A DNA stretch of 64,000 nt, taken from positions 23,746,001 through 23,810,000 of the forward strand of contig OX597836.1 in NCBI GenBank assembly GCA_951406725.2, given 5' to 3'. The translations under genes were made by a program, and so were the position numbers. Under the pieces are notes generated by a model. The model had not been told where the DNA came from and did no database searches. It saw nothing but the letters and a program-made list of their open reading frames with translations. Every line of letters begins with the position of its first letter. Positions within the stretch are counted from its first letter, which is position 1. Shown here in pieces: positions 7,613-57,510 of this stretch. This DNA is from Octopus vulgaris (lineage: Eukaryota).

Positions 7613-7619
<7 letters not shown>

Positions 7620-8370
7620 CAAAAATAACCAACAAGAATGAATCCGATAATTTAGTACAATTGTTTCATACTACAACATTTTATTAAAAGCTGTAAATAT
7701 TACAGTAGATTTAAGATGCTGAGTAATCTTCAGCTAATTTATATAGGTTTTCCAATAATATAAAAGTTTTCAAATCAAGTAATAACATCTTAGGGAAGGT
7801 AAATATACAGATAAAGATGTAGATATGAATTTTAGGAACATGAGGTCGTGTGGTTCAGATGCTAACTGACCAAAACTTTGCTTATAACTGACTGCTGTAA
7901 GAAAATTTCTTTAGTTATAAGGATTAGGTAAGGGAAGGTAAAGAATTCAAGTTAGTTGTAGAAAGAGGAGGAAATTCAGGATACATAAAGGAAGTTCAGG
8001 TTGTCACTAGAACAAAAAGTCAATTTATCTATGTGGTGACAAGAAAATTAGGTTAGTGTAGAGAGTTCATTAAATACTCAAGAGCATATGAGGTTGTAGA
8101 TCAGATACTAACTGACCAAAACCTTACTTGCAACTGAAAGCTATAAGAATTTTTTTAGTTATAGAAATTTGGGTAAGGGAAGGTATTAGAATACCGTAAA
8201 AGGGATTTAAGCTTTTAATAAAATGTTGTAGTATGAAACAATTGTACTAAATTACCAGATTCATTCTTGTTGCTTATTTTTGATTATATTCACCCCGCAT
8301 ATTTTTATGGGTAACACCATACAAAATTCTGGTGCATCTAAACTAAGTACCATATTCATTTGAATCTAAA
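7613..8370. mobile_element. Penelope-like non-coding element with 79-bp inverted repeats (7613-7691 / 8211-8289), family H4
   Basis: The inverted repeat is visible, with an internal ~105-bp diverged direct repeat (7838-7943 / 8085-8184). Homologous to 32812-33290. Abuts (TA)n. Confidence 0.65.
7649..7739 (-). ncRNA. Type-I hammerhead with extended stem-loop II (family H4)
   Basis: aattag-CTGAAGA-ttactcagcat...atgttgtagtat-GAAA-caattg-TA-ctaaatt; stem I ttag/ctaa, palindromic stem III. Confidence 0.65.
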
Positions 8371-8422
8371 TTGTTGCTGATCTTATTATGTCTTCCCTTC
8401 TCTGGATCTTTCCTTCTCCTGT

Positions 8423-8457
8423 GTTTCCGACGAAGAGCTCCGCTCGAAACGTTAAAC
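8423..8457 (+). ncRNA. Minimal hammerhead motif (family H3)
   Basis: gttt-CCGACGA-a-gagc tcc gctc-GAAA-cg-TT-aaac; all three stems pair. Confidence 0.7.
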
Positions 8458-8548
8458 CCTCCTTTCCTTCTTTCCTGAGCGTCCAATAATACTATATTTG
8501 TTCCACGTCCTCGAGTTGTTGTGTTTCTTTGTGCTTTCTTGTTTGGAT

Positions 8549-12638: not shown

Positions 12639-12679
<41 letters not shown>

Positions 12680-12829
12680 TCTGTCTATCTAGCTGCCCAG
12701 CTATCTCTTTCATTCTTTCTGTCGTTGTGCCATTTACAAACATATACAATTTATGTTGTGAATATGTGTATTTGTATGTATGATACAGACATACATACAT
12801 ATATCCGTATATATACGTATATACATATA

Positions 12830-12870
<41 letters not shown>

Positions 12871-13018: not shown

Positions 13019-13057
<39 letters not shown>

Positions 13058-13206
13058 TATATGTATATATACGGATATATGTATGTATGTCTGTATCATA
13101 CATAAAAATACACATATTCACAGCATAAATTGGATATGTTTGTAAGTGGCACAACGACAGAAAGAATGAAAGAGATAGCTGGGCAGCTAGATAGACAGAG
13201 GTTGAA

Positions 13207-13257
<51 letters not shown>
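12639..13257. repeat. ~230-bp inverted duplication enclosing a 155-bp hammerhead insert
   Basis: 12674-12864 is the reverse complement of 13020-13205, extended by (CT)n / (GA)n. Confidence 0.9.
12874..12925 (+). ncRNA. Type-I hammerhead motif (family H2)
   Basis: gtct-CCGATGA-ag ggatatt attaatt aatatcc ta-GAAA-cagctg-TA-agac; stem I gtct/agac, 7-bp stem II, palindromic stem III, GUA triplet. Confidence 0.72.
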
Positions 13258-32727: not shown

Positions 32728-32808
<81 letters not shown>

Positions 32809-32931
32809 GCAAAAATTTAGATTCAAATGAATATGGTACTTAATTTAGATGCACCAGAATTCTGTGTGGTGTTATCCATAAAAATCCGTGGGGTGATTAT
32901 AATCAAAATAAGCAACAAGAATGACTCGGGT

Positions 32932-33022
32932 AATTTGGTACGATTGTTTCGTACTACATCATTTTATTAAATGTTGTAAGTATTACAACAGTTTTAAAAT
33001 GCTGAGCACTCATCAGCCAATT
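32932..33022 (-). ncRNA. Type-I hammerhead with extended stem II (family H4), canonical
   Basis: aattgg-CTGATGA-gtgctcagcatttt...aaaatgatgtagtac-GAAA-caatcg-TA-ccaaatt. Confidence 0.72.
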
Positions 33023-33168
33023 ATAGAGGTTTTCCATTAATACAAAAATGTTCATATCAAGTGGCAACATTATAGAGAAGGTAGATATATAGACAAAGAT
33101 ATATATCTACCTTCACTATAATGTTGCCACTTGTTATGAACATTTTTGTATTAATGGAAAACCTCTAT

Positions 33169-33259
33169 AATTGGCTGATGAGTGCTCAGCATTTTAAAAC
33201 TGTTGTAATACTTACAACATTTAATAAAATGATGTAGTACGAAACGATCGTGCCAAATT
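33169..33259 (+). ncRNA. Type-I hammerhead (family H4), GUG at cleavage site
   Basis: aattgg-CTGATGA-...-GAAA-cgatcg-TG-ccaaatt. Confidence 0.62.
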
Positions 33260-33288
33260 ACCGGAGTCATTCTTGTTGCTTATTTTGA

Positions 33289-33350
<62 letters not shown>

Positions 33351-51514: not shown

Positions 51515-52153
51515 CTTTTTCGGAGAAAGGGCAAGTCGATTACATGGATCAGAGTGCCCAGCTGCTGCTTATTTCATCGACCGCGAAAGATGAAAGCCAA
51601 ATTCGACCTTGGGAAAATTCGAACTACGGAAGAAATGCCGCTAAGTATCTGACCTCATCACGATACTGTCAACTTACTCGTAATGATGATGATAATTATC
51701 CTTTTCTTCTCTAGGCACAAGGCCCGAAATTTGGGGGGGGGGACCAGTCGATTAGATCGATATCAGTACGCAACTAGTATTTAATTTATCGACCCCAAAA
51801 GGATGAAAGGCAAAGTCGACCTCAGCGGAATTTGAGCTCAGAACGTAACGGCAGACAAAATACCGCTAAGCATTTCGCCCGGCGTGCTAACGATTCTGCC
51901 AGCTCGCCTCCTTTAAATACCTATTTCTTTACTACCCACAAGGGGCTAAATACAGAGAGGACAAACAAGGACAGACAAACGGATTAAGTCGATTATATCG
52001 ACCCCAGTGCGTAACTGGTACTTATTTAATCGAGCCCGAAAGGATGAAAGGCAAAGTCGACCTCGGCGGAATTTGAACTCAGAACGTAACGACAGACGAA
52101 ATACAGCTACGCATTTCGCCCTGCGTCCTAACGCTTCTGCCAGCTCGCCGCCT
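51515..52153 (-). mobile_element. Head-to-tail cluster of three family-A SINEs (51515-51650 decayed, 51700-51912, 51918-52153)
   Basis: Each matches the reverse complement of 438-669. Confidence 0.8.
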
Positions 52154-53369
52154 TTGATAATGATAAGTTTTGTAACTATGGTTTTTATTTGTCATAAGAG
52201 TGACGGATATGGAAATTTACTAAGATAAATTGAAAAAATTTATGCTTTTACTTTGAGTGAAAAATGAAAATAAAAATATGGATATCAATTAGGAAATATT
52301 GAAAAGGGCTTTACGTTAGAGGAAAAAAAAACGTCTTCAGTCTTGTCAAAAACTAACTCGTTTGTCATAATTAGCAGCCAGAAGGTCAGAGAAAGCAATT
52401 CAGGATTATCAATACTAAGATTTGACTGACTGTTTGATTCATCTTTCACTTGTTAATGTGTTCGATGTAAATTCCCAAATCAGTAATATTCGGACACAAA
52501 ATAAATATGAGGATGTTATGCATGTAATTTATATTTCAAGCTGGAAACGCAGTCCAGTGTCAAGTGATGGACTTTTTACATTTGTCCATATTCACTTTCC
52601 TAAAAGTCTTTCCGATCATCGTCGGCGCCCATGATATCTCCCAGAATATCGTTTGTACACCTTCCCGAAATTTTTTATAGAGTGGAAAGATTGACGTTCT
52701 ACTAACGGTATTGCTTGACTAATTGAGGACTGTTGACGTCCAACAACATATCAGATACTAAATATGCTATCGTAGTCACCGTTGACGCAGCAATAACACC
52801 CCAGTTAACAATACGAAACGAGAAAAACGCGTTAAATAGATGACATTCACACTTATTCCCGTTCACATTTATCTAGATGCCTATACAGGTGACTGTTTGA
52901 ATTTTTAAGTAACTTGTTCATCTCCCGGAAAGTCCGTTCAATTTGACTAGATACTGCTTACCCTTCAAGTTCTTCAGAGAGTTAACTGCTTGGAATCTGA
53001 AATAATGCTGTGCTTTAATCTCCTGTTAGAACAAATTTTCTCACGCTGTTATAGACTATAGGAAAAACGAAGTTCACTACGTTTTTCTCTCCTAAATACG
53101 GAAGATTTGGGAATAACTATGAGCCACATATATTTATTCCAGCAGCCTATGTTATTTAATACAACGCAGATAGGTCAATGAATTGTGATCAACTGCTCAA
53201 CAACTCAGTCGTTCACAGTATTTGCTGTTGAAGATCTTTCGCGTCAGGAAACAATATGTAGGTTTCTGTGGCAAAGAAATTAATAACAAATAACTCGAGT
53301 CAACGAAATATTTTAAAATTTATTATTATTATTATTATTGTTGTTGTTGTTGTTGCTGTTGTTGTTTTT

Positions 53370-57099: not shown

Positions 57100-57510
57100 A
57101 ATTCTGGGGGAAGGGGAATGATCGATACCAGTGAATCCAGTACTTGACATGTACATTATTATAACAACTCCGAGGGGATGAAATGGCGTGATTTGAACAC
57201 AGAAGGCAAATAACCGGAGTAAATGCTGCAATTCAATTCTTTCCAACGCTCTAACGAATCTGCTAGCTAGCCGCCTTATAAATAACCCTTTCCACAATAG
57301 ACATAACGCCTGAAATTTTGAAGGAGGAGGAAAGTCGATTATATCGACACCAGTGCTCAACTGTTACTTATTTTATCGACCCTAAAAGGATGAAAGGCAA
57401 AGTCGACGCCGGCGGAATTTGAACTCAGAACATAGCAACGCACGAAATGCCGCTTAGCAGTGTGTCCGACATGCCAACGATTCTTTCAGCTCCCCACCTT
57501 AGCCGCCTTA
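57100..57510 (-). mobile_element. Two tandem family-A SINEs (57100-57278 decayed, 57285-57500)
   Basis: GGATGAAAGGCAAAGTCGAC..GGCGGAATTTGAACTCAGAA motif. Confidence 0.7.

Follow-up and report, generated by a model that had tools for sequence, protein, structure and literature searches.

Penelope-like elements (PLEs) are the closest described counterparts of the DNA considered here. In the accounts drawn on, features on record for these retroelements include inverted 5′-truncated copies, a tail on one side only, and pairs of hammerheads on opposite strands 100–700 bp apart. In the portions of Craig (2021, PMC8557442) used here, the Hydra clade is diagnosed by the RWK and DKT motifs, a CxCx5C linker, the absence of CCHH, the presence of CxxC and CxH around E and N, and a (TA)n target, and File S1 of that paper places an octopus family, Hydra-1_Obim, in the clade. 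What the hammerheads do for these elements is stated to be unclear in both Craig (2021, PMC8557442) and PMC11167929. In the sections consulted of the latter, hammerhead mutants of Poseidon PAc insert unaffected in vitro and no RNA-seq ends fall at the cut.

The window, a 64,000-nt stretch of the Octopus vulgaris genome, contains a two-armed insertion around 33 kb. With a probability of roughly 85%, this insertion is the 3′ end of a Hydra-clade PLE that entered a TA microsatellite twice, back to back, with each arm carrying a selected type I hammerhead structure whose covarying, unbranched domain II spans 59 nt.

The insertion and its parent element

The inverted repeat (32898-33091 / 33100-33293) has 194-nt arms that are 97% complementary and differ at six positions across an 8-nt spacer. 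The 386-bp hairpin reported by an earlier sequence-only reading is thus real, its length being that of 189 + 8 + 189 nt once the TA ends are left off the arms. After the CTGATGA core of each arm come 59 nt, GAAA, six nucleotides, a U-N site, and CCAA, which pairs with the TTGG preceding the core. This is the layout of a type I hammerhead, a three-way junction with the boxes CUGANGA and GAAA and an open stem I. The same reading had called both ribozymes canonical, and while the boxes bear this out, each copy is non-canonical for its family. The plus-strand arm reads CGATCG-TG, that is, GUG with G at position 17, and the minus-strand arm reads CAATCG-TA (GUA), a stem III that is no longer palindromic. 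The computed self-duplex energy is +0.3 kcal/mol for CAATCG compared with -10.0 kcal/mol for CGATCG. By analogy, the G17 of arm 2 would not necessarily be fatal, as the part of PMC3884650 referred to here describes impairment by G17 in minimal hammerheads but continued activity in tertiary-stabilised ones. An Rfam search of the 64-kb window at gathering thresholds returned no matches.

Table 1. Positions of the two insertions and their parts within the window
Feature	Position	Strand	Detail or basis
(TA)n(TG)n microsatellite, left flank (target)	32731..32808		Sequence
Whole insertion, read as a 5′-truncated Hydra-clade Penelope-like element with a second, tail-less copy attached in inverse orientation to its 5′ end	32810..33293		Inverted repeat; tail on one arm; same layout with ORF in L051
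3′ tail, ~95 nt, on one arm only	32810..32902	-	One-sided tail in 8/8 loci; ends cluster at two places
Arm 1, pseudo-LTR (pLTR) 3′ end, element sense strand	32903..33091	-
Type I hammerhead 1	32935..33020	-	Stem I TTGG/CCAA; core CTGATGA 33016-33010; domain II 33009-32951; then GAAA
Hammerhead 1, stem III CAATCG and cleavage site		-	Palindrome broken at 32945; GUA site; predicted cut after 32939
AATAAA, candidate poly(A) signal, arm 1	32963..32968	-	3′ strand of domain II; 24 nt before predicted cut
Spacer at inversion junction, 8 nt	33092..33099
Arm 2, inverted tail-less copy of pseudo-LTR end	33100..33293	+
Type I hammerhead 2	33171..33256	+	Core 33175-33181; domain II 33182-33240; GAAA 33241-33244
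Hammerhead 2, stem III		+	Palindromic CGATCG; G at position 17 (33252)
AATAAA in domain II, arm 2	33223..33228	+	Sequence
(TA)n microsatellite, right flank (target)	33290..33347		Sequence
Sister-subfamily copy, ~600-nt tail-less arm	7614..8211	-	79-82% to L084 and L085, both behind a Hydra-type ORF
Hammerhead of 7.6-kb copy	7737-7652	-	U.U closing stem II; CAATTG stem III; GUA site
Short tail-bearing arm of 7.6-kb insertion, begins inside domain II	8210..8380	+

The copy at 7.6 kb, with which the sequence-only reading had compared the hairpin, belongs to another two-armed insertion (7614-8380), of a sister subfamily, and forms one of its arms. Between the two, stem I changes from TTAG/CTAA to TTGG/CCAA, a true double change (A-U to G-C), and the inner TGTAA..TTACA hairpin is kept, both as had been claimed. 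The asserted replacement of CAATTG by CGATCG in stem III applies to the G17 arm but not to the other, which reads CAATCG. The 3′ UTR of the sister subfamily contains a ~246-nt internal duplication (7849-7908 and 8095-8154), and that of the 33-kb subfamily a similar one of ~230 nt. Directly behind the tail of the 7.6-kb insertion (8421-8460, plus strand) lies a degenerate minimal hammerhead-like stub, CCGACGA-AGAGCTCCGCTC-GAAACGTT, likely the end of another PLE family; at locus L081 the motif is intact, reading CTGACGA with a domain II of 12 nt. Elsewhere in the window are an inverted repeat with 221-nt arms of 95% identity and a 160-nt spacer (12639-12859 / 13020-13240), in which the window scan found no hammerhead, and a dispersed repeat family with inverted members at 438-675 and 51912-52149 (238 nt at 95%) and further copies at 51746-52155 and 57333-57501.

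A search of the host genome (G000) with one arm recovered at least 1,965 candidate copies, with 45 matches at 96–100% among the best 40 scored. In 28 other loci that carry the arm, 5′ truncation is variable upstream of a fixed 3′ end; an inverted partner lies within 1.5 kb in eight of the 28, and in all eight the tail is found on one side of the inversion only. The 3′ ends fall at two discrete places with TA repeats next to them, at query positions 193–198 in 23 of 47 distinct ends and 281–296 in 20, the other four being internal. The ~95-nt tail at 32810-32902 has a weak fold (-14.4 kcal/mol over 100 nt). By analogy with Poseidon PAc in vitro, reverse transcription would have begun at two points of the element RNA, at the end of the tail for one arm and ~95 nt further in for the other. 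As in endonuclease-bearing PLEs, pLTRs in direct or inverted order, 5′ truncation, and a tail at one end are all present.

Walking upstream in sister copies leads, in two steps, to a GIY-YIG domain and the C-terminus of a reverse transcriptase (RT). In L051, an inverted tail-less arm is followed by a broken ORF (RT C-terminus, CxCx5C linker, GIY-YIG) and then by an arm with its tail. An ORF combining RT with a C-terminal GIY-YIG, marked by YRDD and VIY..Y[FL]G, precedes the repeat in sister copies L051, L072, L075, and L076 as well as in the intact L102, and among the best 150 of 7,710 candidates in a protein search of the host genome, open frames reach 981 aa. The element protein has at least 236 homologs, with PF26215 in many and PF00078 in one, and an RVT_1 match is found in one of 26 aligned relatives; five translations from the host genome matched no Pfam family, and a PDB profile search found no match. 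Asn-rich, microsatellite-like insertions between RT and endonuclease (L051:6286-6981 and the L102 ORF) bring the ORF to ~980 aa compared with ~700 aa in relatives.

Several of the Hydra diagnostics are found in these copies. DKT replaces DKG (as ADKT) in the same-subfamily copies L072 and L074 and also in L102 and L110, and the N-terminal RWK appears as IRWK in L102 and IRWR in L110, both of sister families; an intact RWK was not found in the six same-subfamily copies examined. The CxCx5C linker (CNCRIRSKC or CKCRIKSKC) is present in eight of nine loci. CCHH and the inner CxxC are absent, with a single Cys between VIY and YFG, and same-subfamily copies carry YRDD and read VIY..YFG. CxxC and CxH around E and N appear as CQLC and as CIH or CVH, and the intact 981-aa protein of L102 carries RWK, CQLC, and CVH. 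The (TA)n insertion target is a further trait of the clade that is found here. On these motifs, and not on a reference RT tree, the element is assigned to the endonuclease-bearing (EN+) PLEs of the Hydra clade. Within the sub-clade whose long-domain motifs could be tied to Hydra-type ORFs, direct hammerheads lie 183–218 nt before and 0.6–1.7 kb after the ORF. Hammerheads of same-strand pLTRs are ~4.6–4.7 kb apart in L099, L102, L103, L105, and L108, and the 3′ UTR ranges from 0.6 to 1.7 kb. A non-LTR retrozyme was rejected as the source: instead of head-to-tail tandem non-coding units, the copies are inverted and derive from a coding element of which they keep a truncated end.

The long domain II and its poly(A) hexamer

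Folding predicts for the 59-nt domain II one stem of 22 pairs, interrupted by a bulge, a mismatch, and an internal loop, at -15.9 kcal/mol (z -3.5), a stability matched by one of 200 shuffles. The sequence-only reading had described an unusual, branched domain II of ~58 nt; its length is indeed unusual, but it is unbranched, and neither the subfamily fold nor the alignment consensus has a multi-way junction inside domain II.

This domain recurs on a genomic scale. The pattern core-N42-70-GAAAC-N4-GTAC matches the host genome 10,244 times, compared with 10 for a reversed control pattern. A scan of 142 host loci that required a domain II of 40–72 nt gave 141 hits (82 distinct, since loci overlap), which form 20 clusters at 80% with domains II of 49–70 nt. 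For covariation, 18 copies of the alignable sub-clade were aligned, leaving out the distant long-domain families L045, L063, L091:261, L097:959, L108:6236, L193, L199, L200, L202, L211, and L215 and the deletion copies L084 and L208. Across 28 named pairs, 87.7% of 503 cells are paired with 64 double changes, a result equalled by none of 500 shuffles, and slid controls reach 32–52%. When relatedness is taken into account with a tree-aware null, the 20 pairs of domain II are 84.7% paired compared with 62 ± 5% expected, and show 48 double-change cells compared with 13.7 ± 6.1 (0/500 in both cases). Neither the number of distinct domain II pairs with a double change (9 vs 5.8 ± 1.9, 42/500) nor stem I (31/500) is significant under this null. 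The structure was derived from the same 18 sequences, so the covariation test favours it.

In stem III, 12 of 20 family representatives are strictly palindromic and 97% of cells self-pair; among 66 subfamily hits, in which overlapping loci are counted repeatedly and from which the pattern excludes GUG copies, CGATCG occurs 49 times and CGATTG 12 times. Taken together, the earlier claim of a functional, dimer-acting ribozyme holds in part. Covariation is present in the family alignment and, with the 10,244 motifs, supports, at the family level, selection on a hammerhead whose domain II is unusually long; the palindromic stem III and the PLE literature make dimer action plausible. The support does not extend to the twin unit at the hairpin.

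In the full element, the 5′ and 3′ pLTR hammerheads, being on the same strand, would use the palindromic stem III to pair with each other, with cleavage at GUA. The transcript of an active element is likely cut as such a dimer, perhaps with help from the element protein. Stem I is weak, at only 4–5 bp, and the long stem likely lends the fold stability. How PLE hammerheads become activated could be asked with this natural construct, which combines a 4-bp stem I with a long, covarying domain II.

Among relatives from other hosts, 39 motifs were found in 33 of 78 metagenome loci, all with a domain II of 10–25 nt although 8–90 nt was allowed (shuffles 0–2). Within the host genome, a second long-domain group of 55–70 nt (L045, L063, L097:959, L193:1941, L199, L200) has different 3′ flanks and no hexamer in domain II, and may represent an independent lengthening. 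Intermediate domains II of 27, 43–45, and 51 nt (G000 C1:12728931, 16812262, and 19593120; L081; L102:5807) suggest a continuum of lengths in the host genome. When assembled contigs from four sequencing runs were mapped to the arm in the window and from four to the sister family L102, both were covered, and the loose ends listed included no poly(A) and no pile-up at the cut, a negative of no weight given that contigs do not display transcript ends. A step in their depth near 32925 was set aside because the segment 3′ of the cut is common to many families.

The 3′ strand of domain II contains AATAAA or ATTAAA in 12 of the 20 clusters, where 2.2 are expected from shuffles. The hexamer lies 20–27 nt before the cut in nine of the 12 and 14–17 nt before it in three; two of the remaining clusters have TATAAA alone and six have none of the searched hexamers. 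Poly(A) signals lie 10–30 nt from the cut as a rule, and the retroviral poly(A) hairpin offers a parallel. The two hexamers interchange among families, a U/GU-rich stretch lies downstream, and the pattern hexamer-N8-16-GAAAC-N4-GTAC has 12,398 genome matches compared with 701 for its control. Short-domain relatives from other hosts have the hexamer adjoining the ribozyme or overlapping its edge in 17 of 32 families, against 0.4 expected from neighbouring windows and scores of 1–5 for six control hexamer pairs, although these windows were picked after the data had been inspected and their background includes coding DNA.

On this evidence domain II holds a candidate poly(A) signal, and that it works as one is a tentative proposal. 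Four of the six nucleotides of the hexamer are paired in the predicted fold of the 33-kb subfamily, so the long stem would partly mask the hexamer, and folding would compete with 3′-end processing near the same site. An extension of the main reading goes further and holds that domain II is long mainly to carry and mask a functional signal, with the fold choosing whether the product is a tail-less, polyadenylated mRNA or a read-through RNA still bearing the tail that reverse transcription requires. This is possible rather than probable. The host families are related, so 12 of 20 does not amount to 12 separate events, and the hexamer is missing from six long-domain families; the A-rich internal loop could instead serve RNA tertiary contacts. 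In the Hydra rows consulted in File S2 of Craig (2021, PMC8557442), a strict hexamer is present by eye in only ~6–8 of 25, weaker than 17 of 32. More speculative is the broadest version, in which active hammerheads with a 50–70-nt domain II embedding a poly(A) signal form a 3′-end switch of cephalopod-type Hydra elements, and hammerhead/poly(A) coupling is general across the Hydra clade, which would explain why PLEs keep hammerheads that are dispensable for insertion in vitro. The unclear role of PLE hammerheads could be tested directly and cheaply through a hexamer that lies within or next to the ribozyme.

A vestigial core, in which the long stem is kept for protein binding or packaging while RNA cleavage has been lost, is improbable. 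PLE hammerheads do cleave weakly in vitro, or only with the element protein, and in nine of the 18 aligned copies the closing pair 10.1-11.1 is unpaired, with U.U or other mismatches (the outer pair of the inner hairpin is unpaired in 11). However, U10.1.U11.1 is found in active natural hammerheads and in published Hydra motifs, and the catalytic positions do not vary between families whose remaining sequence differs widely. The boxes C3-U4-G5-A6, G8-A9, GAAA, and G16.2-U16.1-A17 are unchanged in all 18 copies; At the place of the NUH cleavage triplet, GUA is shared by arm 1, the 7.6-kb copy, and the 18, which had been selected for it, and arm 2 has GUG.

Fate of the hairpin

The selected hammerhead of the family and the hairpin at this locus are to be kept apart. 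The two motifs lie on opposite strands, so any one transcript would hold one hammerhead and its antisense, and a cis-dimer of the two arms was rejected on that ground. For a read-through transcript, the predicted fold is -307 (plus strand) or -311 kcal/mol (minus strand), compared with -195 or -203 when the hammerhead is enforced. With the duplex favoured over the ribozyme fold by ~110 kcal/mol, RNA read through 32810-33293 is predicted to form a 194-bp duplex in place of the ribozyme.

This near-perfect duplex would be the asset if the hairpin itself had been co-opted at the locus, either as a twin dimer ribozyme or as a double-stranded substrate for editing or small RNAs, and two of the six differences between the arms are A/G changes located in the ribozyme. 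Such co-option is nevertheless quite unlikely. Opposite-strand motifs are unable to form a cis-dimer and both copies are lesioned, which, together with the predicted duplex, leaves the twin functional unit that the sequence-only reading had proposed unsupported. Two-armed inserts are also routine in the family, as the eight partnered loci among the 28 indicate. One lesion per ribozyme copy and 97–98% identity to dispersed copies make a young, inert insertion the simplest reading. No ORF remnant is left at the 33-kb copy; the locus is an ordinary retroelement stub, its hairpin the usual inverted-pLTR footprint of a Penelope-like element, and it is likely an inert passenger.

A further alternative, a MITE of Tc1/mariner type whose long terminal inverted repeats sit in a TA target and whose resemblance to a hammerhead is fortuitous, shares the palindromic form and TA flanks but was rejected as very nearly impossible, since there is no fixed-length pair of terminal repeats (arms occur singly, with variable 5′ ends and a one-sided tail), the arms run on into an RT/GIY-YIG ORF, and the core boxes stay invariant in 18 of 18 copies while the stems covary.

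Comparison with described systems

The element resembles the Hydra clade, as described in the parts of Craig (2021, PMC8557442) relied on here, in its inverted 5′-truncated copy, one-sided tail, type I hammerhead with a stem III that is short and, at the family level, palindromic, and a stem II often closed by U.U. It differs from the same source in three measures. Its domain II is 49–70 nt compared with ~11–26 nt in File S2 (~23 nt in Hydra-1_oBim), its tail of ~95 nt is about three times the 30–40 bp given for PLEs, and its unit of ~4.7 kb, with Asn-rich ORF insertions, contrasts with <3 kb there. In the same portions of the paper, no mention of a poly(A) hexamer in domain II was found. Against the minimal hammerheads of PLEs, as presented in the portion used of Cervera and De la Pena (2014, PMC4209133), helix II here is ~22 bp with an internal loop, and helix III has 4 bp per half in the dimer.

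Long domains II have a precedent in the hammerheads of PLE-X1_sMoe and PLE-X1_sTam of spike mosses, which the rows used from Craig File S2 mark as non-canonical (~53 nt in sMoe). These belong to an unrelated, EN-minus plant lineage that targets rDNA, with a single family each, and no covariation analysis of their hammerheads was seen in the corresponding parts of Craig (2021). Because relatives from other hosts have 10–25 nt, the Hydra motifs of Craig ~11–26 nt, and the unrelated PLE-X1_sMoe ~53 nt, the long domain II is a lineage-level variant with one distant precedent.

Poseidon PAc of Anolis, in the sections consulted of PMC11167929, has a tail from two RT start sites, a pLTR hammerhead, and protein-assisted cleavage, features that the element recalls. 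Yet Poseidon PAc belongs to the Penelope/Poseidon clade and has a minimal hammerhead that overlaps the start codon, whereas here the ORF begins ~185–215 nt past the cut.

A literature search for long-stem-II PLE hammerheads, cephalopod hammerheads, and poly(A) signals in PLE hammerheads, with subscription papers and Repbase outside its coverage, found no description of the variant. The main text of an O. vulgaris repeat annotation (PMC13282606) contains neither hammerhead nor ribozyme, and the accessible portion of a bioRxiv retrozyme preprint contains no mollusc or stem II terms. Since long-domain motifs escape Rfam and the spacers of published descriptors are short, a genomic hammerhead population that ranks among the largest may have gone uncounted; the class comprises >10,000 intact motifs in this genome, from which ~20 families were sampled.
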